From Botryllus schlosseri (taxonomy: Eukaryota), in assembly GCA_051294905.1 (NCBI GenBank), contig CM119373.1:4280001-4344000 (forward strand): 64,000 nt of DNA. Direction: 5' to 3'. The position numbers and the translations under genes were made by a program. Below the pieces are notes generated by a model. It did no database searches. It worked only from the letters and a program-made list of their open reading frames with translations, and was not told the DNA's origin. Below are positions 2,318 to 32,599 of this stretch, one piece after another. Each line of letters starts with the position of its first letter. Within the stretch, counting starts at the first letter, position 1.

Positions 2318-4646
2318 TATGCAACAATTTCATATTCAAACTTCCGAATGAAAACCATTCGGACTACGTCCAGTACAGCGGCACGCTACCGGATATGGCG
2401 TCGTTTCCACATGTTTCTGGATAAGTTCAGTGAACGAAAGTAAGCCGGCGAAAGGATCAATCATAAGTTACTGCGCATACGGTTAGGCATATTGTAATAC
2501 TTTCGGCGTGAAATTGTATAGAAACGAACTGATGAACTGGAATGCAAAGATATTGAATTGGGTTTCGTATCCCATGCCTCGAATGATTACTCATCGGACA
2601 CATATATGTCTAGTCATACAACGGTCTGTATTACAAATATACATCAACGACACCGTGATCACCGACACACACCGAGCTTGGGAATCATTACCAGGAGGCG
2701 GGGTGCTAATTTTCGGGCAGAATCAAGATCACGATTTCGTTGGTGTTCGGCCTGCCAAACCTGACCATTCTCACCAAGGTTTCTACGGTCTAATGGAAGG
2801 TTTACGTATCTGGAATAAAGCTCTCAATGCATCTGACTTACATCGTATGCATGGATGCGACGGAAGCAGTTGTGTTGATGATGCGATCGTGATTGTTAAC
2901 CAATCGAACACATGTTTGCCAGGTCACGTGATTGCAAACTGCAGTGTACCTCAGGGTTGTAACCAAGTCCCATTGTTCCGAGTCACGAGTCAATCTTACT
3001 TTTGTCGTTTTGACTCGAGTCAAGTCGAGTCATTTTCAATTCATCACCGAGTCGAGTCCGAGTCCAAGTCACCGTTTTAAGGCTCAAGTCCGAGTCATAG
3101 TGTTATGACTCGAGTCGAGTCCAAGTCACAGTATTGAAGTCATGTTCAACTCATGTTTTCAATCCTGAATTAGCTTATAGCTTATAGAGAATCAACGAAT
3201 TCATTCTACAAGCTATCTGATATAGAACCAACGAATTCACGTCTAGATACCAGCTGATAGAAAATCAACAGATGCATGTTGATGTAGACGTACAGTTTTT
3301 CTTTCACATTATCAGGTGGTTGACTAAAAAAGGTCAGCTTTCCTGCTCAGCTCCCGAAATAGCTGCCGGAGCGTTACCAATATGAGATGAAATTTTGGAT
3401 TAACTACAAATAGGGATTTTCGAATTTTACCGGCCAACTCATGATATTGTTATATTGGGTAAAAATATAATTCATAGCAAAATTGGCTCAATTCCAACTA
3501 GTAAAAGCGAATTTATTAGAGTGGAATATTTTGGATATGAAAAAATAGTCGGCTTACTACTAGCATGTAGGCTAATTATATTATATGTAATAATTTCTCA
3601 CCAAAAACACTCCCTTTATTTTAAAATATAAAATTTTCTCCTCTGATATCATTAATTCTACTTTTTTTTTAAATTAAGCAAGATTCAGTATTCTTTTTAT
3701 CCCACAAAACAATTTTACCAAGTAGCCACCCAGTAAAATAAATAAGAAGTTATTTTTGAACAACCCTATTGCACAAACATGACACATTAGCCATTCATTA
3801 TTACTCACATGCACAATGCACATACCTAACAAAACGTGAAATGGATGGAGTGTAGGCCTATTGTGTGTTTTCACTGACAGCAGATCAAATCAATGATGAG
3901 TTACAATTCAGAAATAATAAAGTGGAAAAGGGATCCTAATATATGTTATAGCGGCATGGCCTTAGAATAAATCCACATCTACTGAAACACGTTCCACTGG
4001 TGCACTAGATACAGAAATTGACAAGCATTTTTGAACCACATTGAAGAGCATTGGATACTCATTATTTCTGGTCGCCCAAGAATGCAAAAATTCATCGACT
4101 TCAAATCTGAGCTTATTAGTCCCTTCCAAGTAGGCTTGAACATCTGAGTCATTTCATTGCCTCAAATTGAACTTTGCTTCGATTGTTTGCTTGTATAATT
4201 GAAAAGTCTCGAGTACTTTGATTGCGGAGGATCTATTACATCTTCATCACAGGATGATTTTGTACAATGCATTGCTACTATATGTGCCATTGTCTGTTGT
4301 TTTTACGGCGGCATATCTGATATCAGACGAGTGCAACGAAAGCAGTGGCGACAAATAGCGATATCGGCAGAATTCGTCATATGCGTTGATCTAGCCAGTA
4401 CGATTGGCAAATTTCTTCATCTTCAAGTCATATAAAATATGCCGAGTCAATGACTTGGGTCGAGTAATGCGTAATGACTCGAGTACAAGTCGAGTCAATC
4501 CAAATATTGACTCGAGTCGAGTCGAGTCATTTTCCCTTTTCAAGAAAATGACTCGAGTCAAGTCGAGTCACCAAAAATTCGTGACTCGAGTCTGACTCGA
4601 GTCGAGTCATGACTCGAGTCATTACAACCCTGGTGTACCTTGTTAG
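2318..4646 (+). pseudogene. Pentraxin-domain terminal exon, inactivated (coding 2318-2951 plus 4641-4646)
   Basis: TTTCAG acceptor; close paralog of 42047-42681; 1-nt deletion near 2405, in-frame TAG at 2484-2486, and hAT insertion between the last Pro and Cys codons; motifs THICLV, LPGGGVLIFGQNQD, LRIWNKAL. Confidence 0.88.
2952..4632 (-). mobile_element. Internally deleted hAT element (GACTCGAGTC-rich family), copy 1
   Basis: TIR CAGGGTTGTAA...TTACAACCCTG; TSD GTGTACCT (2944-2951, 4633-4640); many GACTCGAGTC subterminal palindromes; decayed hAT dimerisation motif (SSAPVERV) on minus near 3960-4100. Confidence 0.92.
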
Positions 4647-5340: not shown

Positions 5341-6068
5341 GATATAAATTGATGAATTTCTATTCAAGCACTACCCTATTGGGTACATGACATCGTTATT
5401 GCGGAAGTTGTTGTTGTTGGAGTAGAGACTGCTAGCATATACGTCGATCGTGATGTCTCTCATCACACCAAAAAATATCTACAGACTGCGCCGTGCATGT
5501 TACTGCATCACCAAGCCGAAAGAAACAGGATATCCTGACATGTTACCTTTAGATCAGCTGTTCCGAACCTTCACTAACCTGACAAAGCCTTTGGCGAACC
5601 CTAAATTATTGATGTCTTATGAGAGAAAAACCGCCATAATACACATCTTATACATTACTATAGAATACTAGTGCATAAATTGAACTTTGCGACAACAAAA
5701 AAAAAACGTAGTGTACGTAAGTATAAGTGAAATGGCATCAGGTAATGTTGGAGTGCAATTGGTAGTTGTGCAACAAGCATTACCAAATGAGATAGCACTC
5801 ATCAATCAAATCTACTGAGATACTCCGAATGAAGTAGAAGTGCGCCAGGGTTACCATGTTTTTGTGGTTCAAATTCCGGACACTGATTAGTGCCCACTAG
5901 TGGGTTTCAAAATGACGTATGGTCACATTGTCTGTTAATATGACGTCACACTGTCAAAGTTTTGCCTATTGACTGTATAGAGGAGTGGAACATGGGTACT
6001 GAATTGAGCCATCTCTAATGCGAGCTCCGCGATGATGCTCTTCTGTCTTATAATTTGGTCTGCTACAG

Positions 6069-18151: not shown

Positions 18152-19477
18152 GTTCGGGTAACATTTATTCGGGTTGCGATGTGCATTTAACGAAAACGAA
18201 GTCTACTAAAACCTGGACAAACCGATGGTTCCTTTGGTTTGCGATGTTTTCCTGGCACACATTGATGCATGATAGAGATTGCAATTTACGTCTACTCTCT
18301 GCTATCTCTTCACACCTTAGATTTCTATAAGATGGTGAATATAATACGACTTTGCGGACTCGTTGGGTAGCTTCTGTCTGGATTTCTATTGATGCATTGA
18401 TCAATTACACAAGGGAATAATTTTAAAAGAAGATTTTGCTGACTTTGTTTTTGCACTTGATTTAGGCTAATTCTGGTGAGCTGATTCGAAAAATCCTGCT
18501 AATGGTCTACTTTTATTCAAGGTTGCTACTCGAACTGGAAAGTGAACACAAACACATGGCCTCACACGATGTCACAATATGTCACAAATCAATTGCAAAT
18601 CAGTTAATAATTTAATTATCTAATTATTTACAGCCGTAATATGGCGTTAGAATTGTTGCTCCAAAATACTATTTTTCTCAAAACCTTCTTCGTTTCTCTT
18701 GTACGTATTTTTACCAATGTTATTCACTTTGAACATATTTTTATAATCTGAGGTTACCTTCTGAATACTAAATTTAGGAAGTCTTTTTCACAGCACCGGA
18801 CAAAACATCAAGAGATTACGAGCAATTTGAAGCATATGGCTAAAGGGGAACTGAAAGTGCCGAGTAAGAGCTGCTAATAATTATAGCTACGCGTAAAAAG
18901 AATATATTTCGCGGTAGATGTGCCCAGTACCTGATATCAATGTATTACGTATCATATTGGAAAGTGCATGCGAGACATCCTCGTTCTGCAATGCTAATAT
19001 TACATCCAAATATAAGTCGATGCTATATAGTTTCAAAGTTGCAATTTGCAGTATTTTATAATTAACTCTAGAAAGATGGTATGTTTATTCCGTTCTACAT
19101 TGCGATGTTGCAAACACTGAGAACTTGCGTCATTTACGAATAACTTAGGAAATAATTCATTTTCAAGATTTCTAATCATAATGCAGCACAGAAGGCCCGC
19201 GACAGGTGATTAGTGCTGATGTAAGCTCACAATTATTGCATTTAGGACAGAGTTACTGCTTTTAGGATAGGGCTACCATATTTTGTGGTTAAATTCCGGA
19301 AACTATTCAGCGCCTACTCTCGGGTTTTACAATAAGATAAAGGAGATTGTCGGTCAATATCCCAGCAAACACAAAACTTATTAAAGATATTTTTTAAACA
19401 TCTTCTATGAGTTCAAAAGATGTCCTTCAATTATGTGCAAAATATATACATTTGTCGACAGAAACGGATATATATAA

Positions 19478-19560
19478 GATGTCCTGTAGGACATCCTCAA
19501 AGATATCCTGATAAACATCCTCAAAGATATCCTGATAAACATCCTCAACGATATCCTATA
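19478..19560 (+). repeat. 24-bp tandem subterminal repeat, about 3 copies
   Basis: Unit AAAGATATCCTGATAAACATCCTC. Confidence 0.9.
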
Positions 19561-20202
19561 ATATATTTTTTGTACAGCTCGACCCTGTGTGACCCTGAAC
19601 CCTGGTTGGCTAAACCTGCTTTATGCTGCACTTCACATATGAACGAATACGAATCGTCAGTTTTACAAATCATGTATGGCTTTTTGTTCTATATTATACC
19701 AGTTCAAAATACAAAAAATGCACTGGACTAGACATTGACGGAAAATTGCAATAAAAATGGATGAAGAATGAAGGTAAAATAACAGTCCAGACAACACACA
19801 GCATACGTTAACAAGAAGTAGACAGCAAGAGGTAGGCCTTGATTCAGAATGAAAACTAATCGCCAATTTTTAAAATCATTTATATGGCTTTCTGTTCTGT
19901 ATGAAATCAGTACAAAACACGCCAAAAAAACTCGGATGAAGAAAATACACAAGCAAGAATTGGGCCTTGATACAGAACTTTGTAATGACTTCAGCAAATA
20001 TTTCTGCATTAGCAATAGTCCATGTTATCGGTATCGGAATTTTCAGCCTCCTCGATAACAGTCTTGCTCCTGTTTTCTCCTTTATTGACATCCTATAACA
20101 TAAATGAATTGATTACTTTGATTGATTATAGCAGTAGTGCAAAAGTAATTTATGTGTTTGGGTGCGAGTACCGTGGGACGGTCATGTGAAGTCACATTCA
20201 TC

Positions 20203-21035
20203 CAGTGTTGGGATGACTCAAGTCCACTTTGTAAAAATGACTTGACTTGACTCGGCGCTTCAGAAATAAGGATTGACTCATGACTCGGAGCAAAATTCAC
20301 AAGTCAATTTCAAGTCATCAAGAAAACAATGTCAATTAAATCATCCTATCTTATCTATGTTCGGGTTGTCCGCGTTACGTCGGTGTCACTTGTGAGAGCA
20401 ATCAGTCATTCACTGATTGTACGAATCACTGACGCTCCATTATTACATCACAAATAAATCGACCAATAACTAAACGTTCACTGCTTACGTTGTAGTAGTA
20501 GTTGTAGATTAATCTAATAGCAACATATCTTTGTTTCTTAGACGGTTCAGTGCCTACATTGCACAGCGCTCACCTTTACCAACACTCTTATATGATTTAA
20601 ATCGAACGAATTTAGTTTATGCCTTAATATTCTCACGGATGTGTAGATGGATAGTGCCTGTTGTAGCAAATAAATTTGTTCAACTTCTCGAGGCTTCATA
20701 TTCGATCCTCTATATTGGCAATAAAACCAGACTGTTGCATGTGGACAGTTACTCGCGTATTTTATTAGCAGTTCTACGTGTGTGCGCGCGATGCAACACC
20801 TTTTTGCATGTATATTTAACTTTATATTCGCTATTTGATTCAAGATAAATGGCCAATTAATCTGTCCATCACCAGTTAGCAAAATGTAATGACTTTGCAT
20901 CACCACTCATATTTCGAAAATTCAATTTGACTTGACTTGACTCGAGTCACCTCCAAAAACGAGCGACTTGACTCGACTCGAGTCAAAATGTGCAATGGCT
21001 CGTGACTCGAAGGTAGTGAATTGATCCCAACATGG
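20203..21035. mobile_element. hAT MITE (GACTTGACTC repeats)
   Basis: CAGTGTTGGG...CCCAACATGG; TSD CATTCATC; relatives at 58721-59589 and a truncated end at ~2146-2255. Confidence 0.8.
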
Positions 21036-22206
21036 CATTCATCCAAGGATACCGAACCGTCTTTTGTAAATCACGACGACCTTGGTGGTGTGTGACAGCC
21101 AAGTCAAACTTTACCATCTACTTCGACTTGATTATCGATTAAACTCTGCGCGCCAAATTTGGCTCAATTCCAACATATAGAAGCTAAGCCAGGCGCTGAG
21201 CCCTCCACGCGGTACAAATGCGACCAGTTGAGGATAAACTTGCTTCCCGTGTAGAAATGTGAATTGAAAGGAGTTTGAAATTGAGTGATCGATTATTCGC
21301 ACAAAAGTTTTGCAGACATTGGTTCCACCGCTAAATCTTAGAAAGTGTTACGAGAGGATCAAAAATTTATGCAAGCTGGGCCGACAATCTTGACAAAATT
21401 AAATAATTACTAGAATTTTTTTTTGAATTACATTACGTCACAGTTTGGGAACCACAGGTATAGTGTTCTGAATATGAATGGTAGCGGCCCTGGAAGTAGC
21501 AACGATTCACTTACTGTCAAATAATATGATAAAGAACGCAGCTGTCACACAGACGTCAGATTCATAAACAAAATTACCTTGCAAGCTCCAATAACAGTTA
21601 GAAATCGTCCCACTTTACTTGTAATTGTTCGACTCTCGGCCGTAGGATGAGTCACTTTGCATGCTCCTTCAAAGAGAATATAAGTAGATCAGGGGCGGCA
21701 TTACAAGACAATGCGGCAAATCGGAATCTCCGCCAGCGGTAACAATCTCTCTCGAATGTGATCACCACATAATGTCAAAATTGGTATTTCAAAACATTTC
21801 AGACTCAGCACGGAGTTGCGCAATCAACGCACTTGTTTGTGATTTCGCCATGTCGGCAATCTCAGTAGAAGATGACTTCAAACGAGGGCTTACAAGTCCG
21901 TGTGGTCAGCAACAATTTGAAATTTAGCTACAATGATATTTCACAAGAAGGGAAATCAAAATATCCTAACTCTGTAAAAATGCTCTCGAAGACATTGTTA
22001 TTGAGGGTTTTGTAATCGCGATTGTAATATTAGTTACAACTTACGTTTAGTAGTCTTGTCAAGAGTAAAATTTTGAAAACTTTTTTTTTGTCCATTTTTG
22101 CTTCTTTGACCTTTCAGACTGAACCTTTGCAGCTATGCTTGTCATATTTCTGACCGTTGAGGCTAATTGTTCACCACGAAGTCCATTCAAAGCAGATACC
22201 TGTAAT

Positions 22207-24290
22207 CAGGGTTGTAACTAAGTCACATGATTCCGAGTCACGAGTCAATCTTACTTTTGTGGTTTTGACTCGAGTCAAGTCGAGTCATTTTCAATTCCTC
22301 CCCGAGTCGAGTCCGAGTCCAAGTCACCGTTTAAAGGGTCAAGTCCGAGTCATAGTGTTATGACTCGAGTCCGAGTCCAAGTCACAGTATTGATTCTATT
22401 GAAGCCATGTTCAACTTATGTTTTCAATCATGCTTGGGTGATATCGAATTCCTTGCTTGCCAAACATGCTTATTTTGCCCCTATCAGAGTCTTGGTTTAG
22501 TTAGGCAGATAACCGACAGTTCCTGGCCTCATTTACCGATGCTACAGATAGACGAGACTGGCCGCCAATATGATAACTTTACTAATCTTGGAACTTTCAA
22601 TCAAATATCTGTCTTGTCAGTCTGATAGCCTACATCACAAATACAAGCATTCAGTTTTTATTACGAGCACATCGACGACAGCTCACAAATAGCTTATAGA
22701 GAGCCAACGAATTCCCGTCTACAATAGAGAACCAATGAATTCACGTCTAGACACCAGCTGATAGAGTATCAACAGATGCATGTTTATGTAGTGTAGAGAT
22801 GCAGTTTTTCTTTCACATTATCAGGTGGTTGACTAAAGTAAAAGGTCAACTTTCCTGCTCAACTCGCGAAATAGCCGCCGGAGCGTTACTTCAGTGCTGA
22901 TTTACTGTATCTTAGTCGAATTTGCCCTACATTTACCAAAAATTCTCAAAAACAGGACAAAATCTCAAAAAGGAGGCTACTTCTTAAAATTGTTAGATTG
23001 CCTAAAAGAACTAAATTTGGCTCAATTCCAACCAGTAGAAAGCAATGCTATGAGCGCAAATTTTGGATTAATTACAAATAGAGACTTTCGAGACTATACC
23101 TCATGATATTGTTAGATTGTGCAAAAATATGATTCATAGCTAATTTGGCTCAATTCCAACTAGAAGAAGCGAAGTTATTAGAGTGGAATATTTTGGATAT
23201 GAAAGGATAGTCGGCTTACTACTAGTATGTAATTATATAATAGAATATATAAAAATATAGAATATATTAAGAATTTCTCACTAAAAATACTCCACTCACT
23301 TCAAATCTAAAATTTTCTCCTCTCATATCATTGATTCTACTTTAGAAAATTAGGCCAGATTCAGTGTTCTTTTTATGCAACACACCAATTTTATCAAGTT
23401 GCTAACCACTATAATAAAAAAGAAGTTATTTTTGAACAGTCCTATTGTACAAACATCATATAACATTAGCCATTCATTATTACACACGTGCACAATGCAC
23501 ATAACTAACAAAAAAGCAAATGGACGGAGGGTATTGTGTTATTTCACAGACAGCAGATCAAATCAATAAGTTACACTTCAAAAATACTAAAGTGGAAAAG
23601 AGATCTTCGGATACGTTAAAACGGCACGGCGTTAGAATAAATCCACATCTGCTGAATACACGTTCCACTGGTGCACTAGATGCAGGAATTGACAAGCATT
23701 TTTAAACCACACTGAAGAGCATTGGATACTCATTCTTTCTAGTCGCCAAAAATTGCAAAGAATAATCGCCTGCAAATCTACACATGAGGTTGTCAGTCTC
23801 TTCCAAGTACTTGACCATCTGAGTCATTTCATTGGCTCTAATTGAACTTTACTTCGATTGTTTGCTTGTATAATTGAAAAGTCTTGAGTACTTTGATTGC
23901 AGAGGATCTGTTATCACTTCATCACTGGATGATTTTGTACAATGCATTGCTACTATGTACCTATTGTATGTCGTTTTTCCGGCGGCACGTCCGATATCAG
24001 ACGAGTGCAAATAGTGCAAATGGTGACAAATAGCGATGTAGGCAGAATTCGTCAGATGCGTTGATCTAACCATTACGATTCGAAAATTTCTTCATCTTCA
24101 AGTCATATAAAATAAGCCGAGTCAATGACTTGAGTCGAGTCATGCGTAATGACTCGAGTACAAGTCGAGTCAATCCAAATATTGACTCGAGTCGAGTCGA
24201 GTCATTTTCCCATTTCAAGAAAATGACTCGAGTCAAGACGAGTCACCAAAAAATCGTGACTCGAGTCTGACTCGAGTCATTACAAATCTG
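22207..24290 (-). mobile_element. Internally deleted hAT element (GACTCGAGTC-rich family), copy 2
   Basis: CAGGGTTGTAA...TTACAAATCTG; TSD CCTGTAAT (22199-22206, 24291-24298). Confidence 0.92.
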
Positions 24291-26346
24291 CCTGTAATAC
24301 AAAATACAATACATAGTGGTGTGTGCCAGAATGAAAAATCACTAGACCAGTTCAGTTTATTATTAAATTTCAGGTACTCAATTTCGCCCAGCACAAACAA
24401 TGTTACCATAGTGTCCTATATGGTGTGGACACTGCATTTGGGGTAGGCTACGTCATACTTTCCATTGGAACAAAGGCAACTTTACGGCCATTTTGACCGG
24501 CTTTTCGAGTGCAAAATCCGATAAAACGTGTGTCAATGGAAAGCTGCTGATATAATAATCACGTAAATATAAATTTTATTCTGTTCATGCCGGCCCTGGC
24601 ATCCCTAAAATCAGCCAGCCTAAAAATCAGTAAATGGTTTTAAAATAATAGCGCGGGGTTTCGATATTTTTCGAATTCACTAATATAGCATCAATTCATT
24701 ATGGTTAAGTACATCCGTAAATGACGATTATACAATCTTCTCGTGCTGACGATTATATGCGCATGATCAGTTTGACGAGTCCGGAAGTGGTGTTAATTAG
24801 CGACTCTCTGATCTGTCGTGAATAAATAAATACCATCGCATATCAACGCGTCGAACAACTAAATACCGTAGGCGCGCTGATCAACGTCCTTTTGAAATGA
24901 CCGTACTGATGCTAATATTCAGTCGCAAATCAATAAGTCGTATTTTCAGTGTTGCGCGAAGCTAATTAGGAAGAGGCGTGTTGCCAAATAGCGAGATTCA
25001 TCAGTGCACAAGGCAACGCGACGCCCCACCACCCCGCAACTCGTCGCCTATGACTGTACAGTACATATATCATTCAATAGAACACCGGCATCTCAATTCG
25101 CCCAAAACGACGACACATGTTTACTAGATGTTCGGCAACTAGAATTTTTTCAAATGTGCGACTAGAATTGGAACTACTCAATTTTGAAAATCCGCAACTA
25201 GAACTACAACTACCCAAGAAACCGTTAGTTGGTTGACTTTCAACCAACTAAATGGTTAGTTTGTACAAGTCTCTAAATACGGAAATGACTCGACTCGTGT
25301 CAATCTGTGTATTGACGCAACTTGGACTCGAGTCATTGCGCATGACTCGAACGAACCAAGTCATATGACTCGGGACAAAGACGGCCAGGACCGATATTTC
25401 ATCGTAATTTCGAAGAATATTAAAGTAACCTCCCTGTTGGGATTTCGTCTATTTGTAGTAGTACTTGAAAATGCGATCAGAAACTGCTAAAAGTGAGGAA
25501 AACTACTATATTATAAATGCGAACCATTCAATATCGCCAAACAGAGTTATAAAAAGTGAGTTTAACAAGATTTTAGCTGGAAACTGAGCAGTCAACACAT
25601 TGACTTGGACTCGAGTCATAATACCATGACTCGGACTCGTCTCTCTGATCGATGACTTGGACTTGACTCGGTGGCGAGTTGAAAATGACTCGACTTGAAT
25701 CTGCGTAATGTGACAATGGCAACAAAGAAGGTTTAAACTAAATGAAAAGAGTGACTTATTGTGATTTTAATTGTTACGACATACTTTGCTACATTGGCTT
25801 TATGTTGAACATGGATTGCGCATGCGAGCTTGCGAGGGACGTAGGCTGCGTAACCGCGGTATATTTCCGTTCCGGCCCAGTTTATAAGCTTACGGTTTAA
25901 TTTTCAAAAGTAGGTTTTGTGTTTTGAATTTCGAGAAATGGACACGTGGGCCGCTCAGAATGGTTTGCGGGCCGCACTTTGGCCAGGTCTGAGTTAGATA
26001 GTCCGGCAAAGTTTGCTCTAATCAACAAAATCATACCAGTTCAGACTTCTTGCAATCGCAGTTAATCAAGTTCTTTTCCAGTTGTTCCAGATGAGATAAG
26101 GTTTGACAGGGGTCTTCAATAAGATCTTCCAGCAAGATTGGGGTTGTGGTACTGTGTTTTTTTGAATCGGTGATGATGTGACCTTTACTGAGATCCATCA
26201 TCTGGTTCATCTCTAACTTCAATTCTTTGATGTCTTTACGCATCAAAGAAATTGAGTGGTCACTGTATGCAGATGTTGGAGTTGATGGTGTGCACGGAGC
26301 AGCTAAAAATTATTTGAATTTAAGAAAGCTGGATTAATCATATGGC

Positions 26347-28420
26347 CAGGGTTGTAACCAAGTCACATGGTTCCGAGTCACGAGTCAATCTGACTTTTGT
26401 GGTTTTGACTCGAGTCGAGTCGAGTCATTTTCAATCCATCACCGACTCGAGTCCGAGTCCAAGTCACCGTTTTAAGGGTCAAGTCCGAGTCATAGTGTTA
26501 TGACTCGAGTCGAGTCCAAGTCACAGTATTGAAGTCATGTTCAACTTATGTTTTCAATCCTGCTTGGGTGATATCGAATTCCTTGCTTGCCAAACATGCT
26601 TATTTTGTCCCTATCATAGTCTTGGCACATGTTTATTTAGGCAGATAACGGACAGTTCCTGGCCTCATTTACCGATGCTACAGATAGACGAGACAGGCCG
26701 CCAATACTATAACTTTACTAATCTTAGAACTTTAAATCAAATATCTGTCAGTCTGATATATCACAAATGCAAGCACTCAGTTTTTATTACTAGCACATCG
26801 ACGACCGCTCACAAATAGCTTATAGAGAATTAACGAATTCACGTCTACATACTATCTGATAGAGAACCTACGAATTCACGTCTAGATACAAGCTGGTAGA
26901 GAATCAACAAATAAACGTTTATGTAGAGGTACGGTTTTGCTTTCACATTAAATCAGGTGGTTGACCAGAAAAATGTCAACTTTCCTGCTCAGCTCCCGAA
27001 GTAGTCGCCGGAGCGTTACTTTAGTGCTGATTTACTGTTATCTTAGTCGAATTTTCCCTACATTTACCAAAAATTCTCAAAAATGAGGGCAGAATCTTAA
27101 AAAAGAGGCTACTTCTTAAAATTGTTAGATTATCTGAAAGAACTTAAATTTGGCTCAATTCCAACCAGTAGAAAGCAATGCTAAGAGAAAATATTTTGAA
27201 TTAATTACAAAGAGACTTTCGAATTTTACCGGCTACCTCATGATATTGTTAGATTGTGTAAAAGTATGATTCATAGCAAATTTGGCTCAATTCCAACTAG
27301 AAGAAGCGAAGTTATTAGAGTGGAATATTTTGAATATGAAAAAATAGTCGACTTACTACTAGTATGTAATTATATTATATCACATATGAAATCATTTCTC
27401 ACTAAAAATACTCCATGTATTTTCAAATCCAATATTTTCTCCTCTCATATCATTGATTCCACTATTTAAAATTAAGCCAGATTCAGTGTTCTTTTTATGC
27501 AACGTAACAATTTTATCAAGTAGCCACCATGTAGAAGAAAAAAGAAGTTATTTTTGATCGGCCCTATTGTACAAACATCACACAACATTAGCCAATCATT
27601 ATTACTCACGTGCGCAATGCAGATATCTAACAAAACGTCAAATGGACGGAGGGTATTGTGTGTTTATGCAGACAGCAGATCAAATCAATGAGTTATACTT
27701 GTAAATACTAAAGTGGAAAGGAGATTCTCATATATGTTGAGGCGGCATGGCCTTGGATTAATCCACATCCACTGGATACACGTTCCACTGGTGCATTAGA
27801 TGCAGGAATTGAAAAGCAATTTTGAACCACACTGAAGAGCATTAGACACTCATCCATTCTAGTCGCCCAAAAATACAAAGAATCATCGCCTTCAAATCTA
27901 CACATGAGCTTATCAGTCTCTTCCAAGTAGGCTACTTGACCATCTGAGTCATTTCATTGGCTCTAATTAGACTTTGCTTCGATTGTTTGCTTGTATAATT
28001 GAAAAGTCTTGAGTACTATTACCTCTTCACCACGGGATAATTTTGTACAATGCATTGCTCTTTGCTACTATGTACCATTGTCTTTTGTTTTTACGGCGGC
28101 ATATCTGATATCAGACGAGTGCAACGAAAGCAGTGGTGACAAATAGCGATGTCGACAGAATTCGTCACATGCGTTGATCTAACCATTGTAATTCCCAAAT
28201 TTCTTCACCTTCAAGTCATATAAAATAAGCCGAGTCAATGACTTGAGTCGAGTCATGCGTAATGACTCGAGTACAAGTCGAGTCAATCCAAATATTGACT
28301 CGAGTCGAGTCGAGTCATTTTCCAATTTCAAGTAAATGACTCGAGTCAAGTCGAGTCACAAAAAAATCGTGACTCGAGTCTGACTCGAGTCGAGTCATGA
28401 CTCGAGTCATTACAACCCTG
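26347..28420 (-). mobile_element. Internally deleted hAT element (GACTCGAGTC-rich family), copy 3, with a dimerisation-domain remnant
   Basis: TIR CAGGGTTGTAA; TSD CATATGGC; ORF 27708-27926(-) contains FW...SIPASNAPVERV. Confidence 0.92.
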
Positions 28421-29905
28421 CATATGGCTAATTCCATTATAATTTAACAGGGGCTGTAATGCATACCCTCAGAATTGTCCAATATTTACAAATGTTATTC
28501 TTTTTTGAATTCCAAATTTATTAAAAAAAAAAAAATTGAAAAATTTTCAGCGGTTCAAAAGATATTGCGATTTAAAATCCTCTCGTCACTAGGTGGCGCT
28601 ACTTTCAAAATTCTTTGAAATCGATATTTTTCGCTTAAATGATGGTAGAGAACCAATTAAAATGTCCAATTAACCAATTCTGGGGCCAAGAAATTCAATA
28701 AAACCAACTGTTTCGCTCTAAACTCAATGAAAAAAAAGTTACGGATGAAAAAAAAATGGGGGGGACGGGCTTGAAAATGTCTGTGGGATACGGCCTACAC
28801 AAAAAAATTATTGTGAAATGTGCTTTTAAGGAGTATGGTTGATAAAAAGCTTGATTTTAAATTTAATATTTATTCCACCATGAAATATGCATTACATAAA
28901 AATTTCATGGTCCTAACCCATATCCCTGCTCACCGTAAATACTATTATCACCAGTCAAATATATGAATAAATTTATTCGTTTTGTTTTCGAAATTTTTCA
29001 AGTAGAATCCGTGCTGAACCACCGCATCAACAATAATAGAAGCAAGTAACAAAAGACATATTTACAATTGATCTTGAAATGTGGCAAGTCGACGATCCAA
29101 AATGCATGCCAAACACGAAACAATAAATATGTTGAAAATGCATTTTGTCTCTTAGTATTGTCAAAAGTCAAAAATCCGAACATATTTATTGTTTCGTGTT
29201 TGGCATGCATTTTGGATCGTCGACTTGCCACATTTCAAGATCAATTGTAAATATGTCTTTTGTTACTTGCTTCTATTATTGTTGATGCGGTGGTTCAGCA
29301 CGGATTCTACTTGAAAAATTTCAAAATCCGATACAAATAAATTTAATCAAATATTTGACTGGTGATAATAGTATTTACGGTGAGCAGGGATATGGGTTGG
29401 GACCATGAAATTTTCATGTAATGCATATTTCATGGTGGAATAAATATTAAATTTAAAATCAAGCTTTTTATCAACCATACTCCTTAAAAGCACATTTCAC
29501 AACAATTTTTTTTGTGTAGGCCGTATCCCACAGACATTTTCAAGCCCGTCCCCCCCCCCCCATTTTTTTTCATCCGTAACTTTTTTTTCATTGAGTTTAG
29601 GGCGAAACAGTTGGTTTTATTGAATTCCTTGGCCCCAGAATTGGTTCATTGGACATTTTAATTGGTTCTCTACCATCATTTAAGCGAAAAATATCGATTT
29701 CAAAGATTTTTGAAAGTAGCGCCACCTAGTGACGAGAGGATTTTAAATCGCAATATCTTTTGAACCGCTGAACATTTTTCAATTTTTTTTTTTTAATAAA
29801 CTTGGAATTCAAAAAAGAACAACATATATAAATATTGGACAATTCTGAGAGTATGCATTACAAATCTCAAAAAATTTGCTAAATTATAATGGAATTAGCC
29901 ATATG
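28421..29905. mobile_element. 1.49-kb foldback (palindromic) element
   Basis: 28421-29133 is a near-perfect reverse complement of 29179-29905; 45-bp spacer; lies in a short intron of the DUF4806-like gene. Confidence 0.93.
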
Positions 29906-31825
29906 TGATAATCTTACCATTACTTTGTGATCTAGGCCTCGTTGTTGACAGTCAGAATTTTCCAGTTCAACATTGCTTACAAATGAAGGAGCGTCTAGAA
30001 AACAGAACGACGCTATAACTCAAATTCGAGAATGGATCAAAGTGTTATAGGAGCTTACTGCATGGGTTAGTTCCCTGCAACTGGCCGCTACATTCAATGT
30101 TGGAATCGTGCTGTTCTTGAACACTCTCCGCATGATGGCAAACTTGCATTGCAAGCATCATTGAAAACAGCACCCTTGCTTGTCACACTTTTATTGCCAG
30201 AATCAGGAGATGGCCGCATTCTTAGAATTGGTATTAGCATACCTTGTGTCTGAATACTTGGATTACTTTTCTTCTTTGAAGGAAACGCATCATCTACAAA
30301 GTATGAAAATTTATATATGAATATTCTGTGTACAACATATTAGGCAGAATAACAAGAGTATATACCGATACCTTGATCATCATTTGAAACAGAATTATTC
30401 TAAAATTTTTTGGGACGTCTTTGTTTAGACTGTTGTCGTTCTTCATCTTCAGACAATGAAGAGGGGGGCAAGCTACTATTGTCCACAACTTCCTTCATGT
30501 CACTATAAGCCTTCTCCCATACATCTAATACAGATGAATAATATAGTTGGCAAGGTCCCAGATTTGTAAAAACTACTAGATTTTTAGTAAGCGCAACTAT
30601 AGAATTACTCAAATTTAAAACTCGCAACTAACGACAGGCGCTCTCTAGTTGTTTGGAAACTATTACGGTAGTATTTTTCCAAATGTGCATCTAGAACTAG
30701 AACTACGGTACTGAAAAAACCGTTCGTTAGTTGTCCGTCAACTAACTAAATAAGCAGTCTGTACGAGTCTGCAATGATACTTGGTATAGGCAAACCTTCA
30801 CAAATTATGAGTTTATACTTACTGGATGAGCATTCGATCCAGATTTTCCACAGAGACCAATTGCCCTTGTCATGTTTTCGTGGCTTCTTGTTTTTCGCCT
30901 CATTAGTGGCATTCTTTGCTTTCGTCTGTGCTTCCACTGTCATATTATATATCTGAGAACTACCAAGTCTTGGCTGAGCCCACAAGCGCCACACTACACT
31001 ATTATAAACAAAAGTACAAAAACATTCAATCACAATGGATGATTTGAGTGACCACCATCTGATGATATTATATAATCCAGTACTGTCACAATAGCTTATG
31101 ATATTCGCAAAAGTGCAAACCAAGTTCTATATACTTTGTGACATTATACCAACACCATATACCTATGTTTCATATTAAGCATATATAAATTACCATGTAC
31201 AGTTCAGTTTTCAGTAATCCTCTGAAGGAATATGGTTAGTTGAGCCTCAAAATACCACGATTAATTCCAGAACGCAACTAAACCAAACATTCAACTGTAG
31301 CTGCAAGCCGCCATTACGAGAGCGCTTTATCTGCCAGAAATATATTTCGCGCCGAGACTTTTGTTCGCGTGGGAGAAATGGCCTCTCGTTTACACTCCGG
31401 ATCAGGAGCCGGAGTCGTAGCAGGATTTCAGCGATACAGTACAGCCGGACTGGATGCGGATTCTGAATTTGTTTCGACAGTCGGATTTCAGCAAGATAAT
31501 CTTAAATACTATATCATGATTTTGGCAGAAGTTTTTTGGACGCAGAACTGGAAATTCTTCAGCCGGATTTTTCGGACTTTCAAATTGCTACCTAGAGCCG
31601 GGCTAATATGATATTGAAGTTTAGCCTACAAAATCGCAAGAAACAGCGTGGCACCAGGTGGAACATTCGGTAGTGACACTATAGGTGACTAAATCGCCCT
31701 ATAAGAGTAAAAATTCATTATAATCTACTGTACATTTATAAACGCCACTCTACCGTAATAGGAAGCAATAATCGAATTTGATATTCCTCACAAATATATT
31801 TTCAGCATTAGACAAAATTTAGCCA

Positions 31826-32160
31826 AGAAAAGTTGTGCTTCAGCACAAGGTATGCACAATAAAAAGATATATTCAAGTTGTGCTTTAGCACAAGGTATGC
31901 ACAAGATATGATTTTGCCATGACTGGACAGGAAAAAGATATATTTAAGTTGTGCTTCAGCACAAGGTATGCACAAGATATGATTTGAACATGACTGGATA
32001 AGAAAAAGATATATTTAAGTTGTGCTTCAGCACAAGGTATGCACAAAAGATATGATTTGAACATGACTGGACAATAAAAAGATATATTTAAGTTGTACTA
32101 CAGCACAAGGTATGCACAAGATATGATTTGAACATGAGCGGACAAGAAAAAGATATCCTG
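31826..32160 (+). repeat. 71-bp tandem subterminal repeat, about 4.5 copies
   Basis: Units start at 31875, 31946, 32017 and 32090 with AAGTTGTGCTTCAGCACAAGGTATGCACAAGATATG or close variants. Confidence 0.92.
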
Positions 32161-32599
32161 ACAAGTTCAAAAGATATCTAGTGTTTGCTGGGATGACGTC
32201 AAATTAACAAAGCTTTGCTTATCGACTGTATACAGGAGTGAAGAGTAACATAGGTCTCTAATGTAAGGTCTGGTGATTGCAACAGATTTCTTCCTGGGCT
32301 GCCGTGTGTTAGACAGCCCGGTTATACTGTTACAGGTAGGTGCGGTTATCTGGATGTGTGTCGGAACCAGGTCCGAAGCAACATTTTTTTCAGTCCCCTT
32401 CCGCCCCCCAAATAAAACACTGATATTGCGCCCACCATAGGTTAATCAATGGAACTTCTTGGGGGCGTACCGTTTGCATCTGGTGGTTACATTTTGTGAA
32501 TGAATTCTGTAAATAATATTGGTTCTTCCGTATATTACTATAAAGCGCACCACAATGCTGCACATCAGGGGTGGTGTGAATGTATGGCCCTCGTTCACG

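Follow-up and report, generated by a model that had tools for sequence, protein, structure and literature searches.

How an animal transposon comes to carry a spliced accessory gene and no transposase is the question raised by an element at positions 19361 to 32192 of a 64,000-nucleotide stretch of Botryllus schlosseri DNA (GCA_051294905.1, contig CM119373.1, 4,280,001 to 4,344,000, forward strand; hereafter the window). The element is bounded by a perfect terminal inverted repeat (TIR), CCCAGCAAACAC, of 12 bp and contains, on its minus strand, the exons of a DUF4806/BEN-like gene, here called the helper. An initial annotation read it as a non-autonomous CMC/EnSpm-type element of a family that kept the accessory gene rather than the transposase and spreads it as a vehicle. 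The evidence below points to a different origin: with a probability of roughly 0.9, the window copy is broken and non-autonomous, and derives by internal deletion from a two-gene cut-and-paste transposon of the CCC-ended animal EnSpm (TRC) type.

Two-gene parents and decay of the window copy

The parents are reached through homologue P0036, a gene model that opens with a transposase fragment; a genome search with P0036 leads to long frames beside DUF4806 exons. At two such loci, L041 and L042, the same TIR stands at the start and is followed by a single-exon transposase frame of 676 and 670 codons, respectively, and then by a helper in the same orientation. The L042 transposase gives 61 genomic matches in 43 loci, and three open transposase frames of 76–77% identity lie 2.3–3.1 kb upstream of matches to family D, the family of the window element. 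Two of these, L043 and L044, carry the window TIR, a left end 85–89% identical to that of the window copy, and open 699-codon transposase frames. Downstream of the L043 transposase and on the same strand, the helper comprises nine exons with AG/GT borders at 8/8 introns and 440 codons without a stop, matching the helper profile over positions 6–315 (E 2.9e-50). L044, together with L046, is a whole 9,099-bp element flanked by TT on both sides, with its transposase open. These loci provide the autonomous partners with a CMC transposase for which the initial annotation had proposed to search.

The class of the transposase follows from its motifs and its relatives. Specifically, L043 contains D239, D316, C335/C338, H535/H539 and E559, the same motifs are found in L041 and L042, and the motif columns match in 88–89 of 89 transposase homologues. 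The order D, D, C(2)C, H(3)H, E defines the CMCT clade in the relevant passage of PMC12730594; the L043 transposase conforms to this definition in its sequence, with putative catalytic roles for the residues. Transposase_21 (PF02992) is detected in 16/30 and DUF4218 in 18/30 aligned transposase homologues at E ≤ 0.01, and the 797 relatives include named ones in molluscs, crustaceans, fish, an annelid and Ciona. Together with the CCC ends and the 2-bp duplication, this Transposase_21-related partner upholds the CMC/EnSpm assignment. A word-seeded search with a 63-residue transposase piece finds no match, the transposase profile has no match among PDB sequences (best E 0.2), and the single-sequence model of the transposase is unusable, with a predicted local distance difference test score (pLDDT) of 38.

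Alignment to L043 locates the deletion joint of the window copy between 30917, equivalent to L043 1874, and 30916, equivalent to L043 4439, with 2,564 bp lost and a 4-bp microhomology, GACG, on both sides. The deletion takes nearly all of the transposase and, from the helper, the whole of exon 1 and the beginning of exon 2; the first "coding" exon is therefore chimeric. Loss of the copy's own transposase open reading frame bears out its non-autonomous status; the proposal that the accessory gene was retained as a working unit is not supported, as the same deletion cuts into the helper. A different joint, L043 1953 to 4477, is present in L023 and L033/34, and family D therefore lost its transposase at least twice. 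Families E and H look like derivatives of L042- and L041-type parents.

Relative to L043, the remnant carries a premature stop and indels in exons 4, 5 and 7 (Table 1), three of which shift the frame, and when spliced as in the parent it stops at codon 82. The nine-exon minus-strand gene of the initial annotation thus stands in its exon count (eight exons of coding type, bordered by AG and GT, behind a first exon that is probably non-coding) and falls as an intact spliced frame. L052 and L053, 99% like the window copy, have the same 3-bp and 14-bp exon-7 deletions, so copying continued after the death of the gene. Stops, frameshifts or truncations affect 8/8 aligned transposase-less copies, with lesions common within subfamilies. 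A family that keeps and spreads a working accessory gene is not supported by this pattern; the working helper travels in the two-gene parents. In a comparison of L043 with L042 by simple codon counting, the ratio of nonsynonymous to synonymous substitution (dN/dS) is 0.24 over 663 transposase codons and 0.35 over 278 codons of helper exons 1–6, so that the helper is under purifying selection between parents. From L043 to three transposase-less D copies, along paths that include a selected branch, helper dN/dS is 0.67, 0.74 and 0.60.

RNA reads aligned to window 19150–22205 at 88% likeness, from individuals that may be without this insertion, cross the exon 8–9 joint (35 reads of run X23, 4 of X21 and one X2 contig) and the exon 7–8 joint (16, 2 and 1, respectively), and both joints are absent from DNA run X1. 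X23 reads differ from the window in 84/84 cases at 20015 and 104/104 at 20041, so the helper reads come from sister copies; a codon missing from the window is present in 15/15. Among the RNA alleles listed, 24/27 match L043 and L044, and 22/22 match L023 and L033/34 where these are covered and agree. In addition, 14 X23 reads carry a 40-base gap of the broken L023, L033/34 subfamily, which indicates that broken copies are transcribed too. A non-canonical joint, 20085–21577 (27 + 11 reads), is read as misaligned reads from a diverged copy.

That helper-only elements keep a working DUF4806/BEN gene for the benefit it brings them, and spread it, is improbable on these data. Transposase-less helper remnants did arise repeatedly (at the two D joints and in families B, C, E and H), but both D joints cut the helper, the aligned copies are all broken and went on copying in that state, and dN/dS rises to 0.6–0.74 in transposase-less copies. 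Most places do lack a transposase match upstream: 37/40 D places, with one present at 3/40 (about 40 being a lower bound), and 72/88 places found by the family-B exon. Such a pattern nevertheless follows, with no benefit to the element, from the loss of a single exon block of 2.1 kb or from selection against copies that make transposase. Exon 7 is open in most near-identical family-B copies, and the RNA includes a third allele class, unlike all four reference copies at 3/27 sites; both observations favour a helper-only family. Further DUF4806-exon subfamilies with near-identical open exons, mostly with no transposase upstream, occur at G000:C8:5941983, C9:15379484 and C10:14139066, and others of the same class at C10:380686, C13:23462639, C4:247790 and C17:1787893; if a helper-only family with an unbroken gene exists, it is most likely to be among them.

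Identity of the helper and its pairing with the transposase

Domain searches of the DNA itself say little. Pfam gives no match above chance level on 37 stop-free window segments, and on 104 and 149 stop-free segments it gives no transposase or DUF4806, only nested retroelement domains and chance rows; that no DDE transposase is visible in the window, as first reported, is confirmed by the absence of any transposase profile match there. Whole-genome family searches with PF16064 (DUF4806) and PF02992 return 0 matches, a result of insensitivity, since later protein searches found both genes, and word-seeded homologue searches with a 71-residue exon find no match. Single exons reach DUF4806 at E 0.059 (exon 7, sister copy) and 0.12, with no other family matched, and the ESM Atlas gives DUF4806 as a lead only (0.91, 16% of members) and places the N domain in unnamed clusters.

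The identification is carried by homologues. An exon-7 profile built from families B, C and D retrieves 183 proteins at E ≤ 0.001, the named ones being uncharacterised mussel and fish proteins. A DUF4806 scan of 47 homologues, mostly longer ones taken from the 150 listed of the 183, scores 27/47 at E ≤ 0.001 and 18/47 over the family cut-off. The full-length homologue P0021, modelled from a 27-row alignment, begins with a β-rich N domain, continues through a disordered linker and a coiled coil, and closes with a C-terminal domain. The five best structure matches of the C-terminal domain are all BEN domains, including BEND6 (7yul; Z 10.6, root-mean-square deviation (rmsd) 2.0, 83 residues), and Foldseek ranks 1–5 are likewise BEN, none of them at E 0.001. 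The N domain can be superposed on the Tudor domain of ARID4B (Z 5.1, rmsd 2.4, 49 residues) and weakly on 53BP1 Tudor entries. The model thus suggests an architecture of Tudor-like domain (modestly supported), coil and BEN domain, connected to the protein of this genome by the profile. A structural link between DUF4806 and BEN is in print in the pertinent part of PMC10789644, and the cargo named by the initial annotation is supported, indirectly, by the profile homologues and the P0021 fold.

Position relative to the transposase provides a second line of evidence. At 19/43 transposase loci of this genome, a same-strand DUF4806 exon follows the transposase within 8 kb, and at 0 loci is it upstream or on the opposite strand (chance 0.001 per locus); the exon lists behind 19/43 are lower bounds, with L042 scored as a miss despite its visible helper exons 1–6. 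Among metagenome contigs bearing the transposase, 41/79 match the helper profile as compared with 0/79 reversed controls; where at least 1.5 kb of room is available, the helper is downstream on the same strand in 31/44, and five contigs show a CCCAG-type end upstream, close to the search pattern. The 79 contigs form 65 clusters, 34 of which have a helper match and 10 a BEN core. Moreover, the two genes are fused in fish gene models: of 120 transposase homologues one, a Cirrhinus model of 985 residues, has the helper as its C-terminal part, and transposase pieces open 5/150 helper homologues listed (Triplophysa, Neoarius, Anguilla, Nerophis and, weakly, Entelurus). Collectively, these sequence associations indicate that DUF4806 proteins are the regular second gene of these two-gene elements.

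The fixed place downstream of the same transposase, at 19/43 loci, in 31/44 metagenome contigs and in the fish fusion models, makes it extremely unlikely that a Pack-type element took the helper from the host, an origin otherwise in keeping with the gene's many introns, its spliced transcripts and homologues annotated as ordinary uncharacterised mussel and fish genes.

Three side observations concern the same proteins. In the gene model P0087 (Neoarius, 499 aa) a THAP domain stands together with an N-terminal piece of the transposase and a core resembling that of the helper, possibly as a chimeric or tamed gene. Long open transposase frames of 37–38% identity at G000:C4:4798774, C1:4761295 and C3:1777483 have no DUF4806 exon nearby, perhaps as a lineage using another helper. 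Transposase-bearing loci are concentrated on a small number of contigs, with 13/43 on C10 and 15 on C3, including G000:C10 0.3–4.2 Mb.

Proposed role of the helper and known systems

In maize, TnpA binds subterminal repeats, and dSpm elements are deletion derivatives of En/Spm. A comparable division of labour can be proposed here. The parent is ordered as TIR, arrays, non-coding exon, large DDE transposase exon, nine helper exons, arrays and TIR, and the helper mRNA would skip the transposase exon. Its product, with a predicted Tudor-like N domain, disordered linker, coiled coil and DUF4806/BEN domain, would at about even odds dimerise through the coil and bind the end repeats through BEN. By analogy with maize TnpA, and again at a coin-toss level of confidence, the BEN domain may recognise GATAT-rich end repeats and help to assemble or activate the transposition complex. 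A single DNA deletion removed the transposase and the helper start; the helper remnant decayed while the ends stayed intact, and the element was copied further, probably in trans by the parents' proteins, landed in an older repeat with AT duplication and accumulated nested insertions.

The window element contains 8 and 11 GATAT motifs in its terminal 300 bp as against 1.06 per 300 bp inside, L044 contains 7 and 12 as against 0.74, and enrichment at both ends extends over families D, E, H and C. The pattern fits family-specific end motifs under one common TIR, binding itself being a prediction. Extended to animals at large, DUF4806 would at root be the TnpA counterpart of CCC-ended EnSpm elements, a protein with Tudor-like, coiled-coil and BEN parts reading family-specific end repeats beside one shared 12-bp TIR, an extension slightly better than an even bet.

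Several points weigh against this account as a whole. No single element is seen whole with both ends and both genes intact: the L044 helper is without parts of exons 3 and 4, and the right TIR of L043 is not reached. Window exons are 78–95% identical to L043, which is accordingly a cousin and not the direct parent. The transposase itself scores E 0.005–0.009 against PF02992, below the cut-off, and the predicted BEN fold belongs to homologue P0021 and not to this genome's own protein. In addition, families A, B and F show little or no enrichment of GATAT, and where the motif is enriched, growth of the arrays may be part of the cause.

The principal competitor of a TnpA-like role is a function outside the cutting complex, in which the helper would turn the element on by acting on chromatin or against silencing, through a Tudor-like reader and BEN sequence recognition. 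The Tudor alignments of the P0021 N domain agree with it, and maize TnpA reactivates a methylated promoter according to the passage on it in PMC1636069. A Z of 5.1 over 49 residues, however, is in the common-fold range, and end repeats at both ends, including the end far from the promoter, suit end synapsis; the chromatin role is the less probable of the two.

Among known systems, the closest to the present elements is that of the animal TRC elements, as described for SmTRC1 in the consulted portion of DeMarco et al. 2006 (PMC1636069), with CCC ends, a 2-bp duplication, a Transposase_21-related frame, a second protein from downstream exons, and transcribed truncated copies with stops. Animal TRC elements also make transcripts that pass over the transposase frame and encode the second protein; of this arrangement, the second gene and its 3' splices are seen here. 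The present elements are alike in the CCC core, the 2-bp duplication, the order of transposase and second-protein exons, and the transcription of broken copies; they differ in that their second protein belongs to the conserved DUF4806 family with a BEN fold, whereas in that portion of PMC1636069 no similarity is found for SmTRC-PrA and a TnpA-like DNA-binding role is only proposed. The architecture is thus already described for SmTRC1, while identification of the second gene as DUF4806/BEN was not found in the literature portions searched, where no link of DUF4806 or BEN to EnSpm/CACTA was found; Repbase or Dfam may already annotate the second frame.

Maize En/Spm (TnpD plus TnpA), so far as the sources consulted describe it, likewise has two genes on one strand. 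Its transposase frame lies between a first exon and the exons that encode the helper, and it too has subterminal repeats and gives rise to non-autonomous copies by internal deletion. Plant elements have CACTA ends and a 3-bp duplication, unlike the CCCAG ends and 2-bp duplication here, and the helper of the window copy is dead. The DUF4806/BEN proteins treated in the pertinent part of PMC10789644 resemble the full-length homologue in the BEN fold and the coiled coil before it, but are regarded there as host proteins, whereas here the family is a fixed transposon part with an extra Tudor-like N domain. Zebrafish EnSpm-N49/N49B is likewise a non-autonomous CMC-EnSpm moving in an animal genome, with no cargo gene in the part of its description consulted (10.1101/2025.02.28.640854).

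The window copy is ordinary debris, but its family gives a name and a fold to the second protein of animal EnSpm/TRC elements, and L043 and L044 offer a one-genome test system with open transposase, open helper and end repeats. Passages of PMC7642931 and PMC13270666 list DUF4806 genes as lineage-specific expansions; genes so counted as host expansions may be transposon parts, and the elements are a possible route for BEN-domain spread among animals. If DUF4806 is the TnpA counterpart, the "gene expansions" credited to it in genome papers would amount to bursts of transposon copying, and among host BEN genes some would be helpers that were tamed.

Insertion site, genome census and nested elements

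The ends of the window element are as first annotated: the TIR is exact on both sides, AT is duplicated, and tandem arrays lie inside both ends (Table 1). Allowing two mismatches, the window contains six TIR matches, and the exact ones are the element's two. The proposed in-window empty site is confirmed, as the rejoined flanks match it at 108/141 bases (77%, E 3e-22) in an alignment that crosses the junction with a single AT.

Table 1. Features of the window element and its empty-site control (window positions; indels relative to L043)
Feature	Position	Strand	Remark
Empty-site control	5847..5987	+	unbroken copy of the repeat hit by the element; outside the element
Target-site duplication AT, left	19359..19360	.	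2 bp
TIR, gene 3' side	19361..19372	+	exact
Subterminal array	19476..19561	.	24 bp x 3.6, GATAT-rich
Helper exon 9, coding part	20009..20092	-	acidic tail; joint to exon 8 in sister-copy RNA
Nested insertion, 833 bp	20203..21035	.	8-bp duplication; presumably hAT-like, from the duplication length
Helper exon 8	21578..21666	-	last helices of BEN-like domain; no indel or stop
Helper exon 7	22045..22199	-	DUF4806/BEN core; 3-bp and 14-bp deletions (frameshift)
Nested insertion, 2,084 bp	22207..24290	.	8-bp duplication, which duplicated the exon 7 splice acceptor
Smaller-insertion cluster, intron 6	24375..25992	.	approximate borders
Helper exon 6	26037..26302	-	coiled coil and helix before BEN core
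Nested insertion, 2,074 bp	26347..28420	.	86% like 22207-24278; 8-bp duplication
Nested palindromic insertion, 1.5 kb	28421..29905	.	92% self-complementary
Helper exon 5	29918..29994	-	2-bp insertion
Helper exon 4	30059..30293	-	disordered linker; 5-bp deletion
Helper exon 3	30372..30524	-	premature stop at 30402
Chimeric exon	30823..30998	-	transposase acceptor and first ~80 bases (30998-30917), then 3' part of helper exon 2 (30916-30823)
Probable non-coding first exon	31194..31300	-	donor kept in both family C and family D; uncertain 5' border
Subterminal array	31856..32156	.	71 bp x 4.2, AAGATAT-rich
TIR, gene 5' side	32181..32192	-	exact
Target-site duplication AT, right	32193..32194	.	2 bp

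The TIR is multi-copy, as had been expected: the 495.5-Mb genome contains 1,224 exact matches (597 forward and 627 reverse) versus 25 for the reversed control (10 + 15) and about 30 expected from composition. Among the first 100 matches listed, inward-facing pairs on contig C1 define 36 TIR-bounded places in eight families (A 14, B 4, C 5, D 2, E 1, F 4, G 4, H 2), all with the 12 TIR bases in common and with different interiors. A 2-bp duplication of 13 different dinucleotides is present in 35/36 elements measured at both ends, a set composed of the 36 places minus L031 plus L044, with one further pair dropped because its right end is not reached. A 3-bp flank match occurs in 1/37 pairs and the ends read CCCAG, which departs from strict plant CACTA elements; a TIR starting with CCC, as these do, is the mark of animal TRC/CMC-EnSpm elements in PMC1636069. 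With a 1-kb piece of the window element as query, at least 42 stretches match, at a minimum of about 40 genome places. In the two copies 99% like the window copy, nested insertions differ between them and the window; at their predicted ends no TIR is found in five stretches, and one lies just inside a left end.

Abundant families with the same TIR include L001 (A, 5.65 kb, 14/36 places), L010 (F) and L027 (G); families A, F and G (22/36 places) give no helper or transposase match. Nested retroelement frames (reverse transcriptase, endonuclease, DUF1759) lie within TIR-bounded L011, L020, L021, L023 and L035/36.

Later insertions separate the exons, as the initial annotation held: of the 12,832 bases, 4,833 align to the parents and the remainder is mostly nested insertions, which occupy the introns: three flanked by 8-bp duplications, the palindrome of 1.5 kb and a number of smaller pieces. 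Three copies of one non-autonomous 2-kb element, at 2951–4632, 22207–24290 and 26347–28420, end in CAGGG, are flanked by 8-bp duplications and carry long subterminal arrays rich in GACTCGAGTC, and the palindrome carries an insertion of the 2-kb element at its end. In the chimeric exon, the window subfamily no longer has the start codon of the transposase; a new ATG at 30943 reads in the helper frame, probably by chance, as that frame stops at codon 82.

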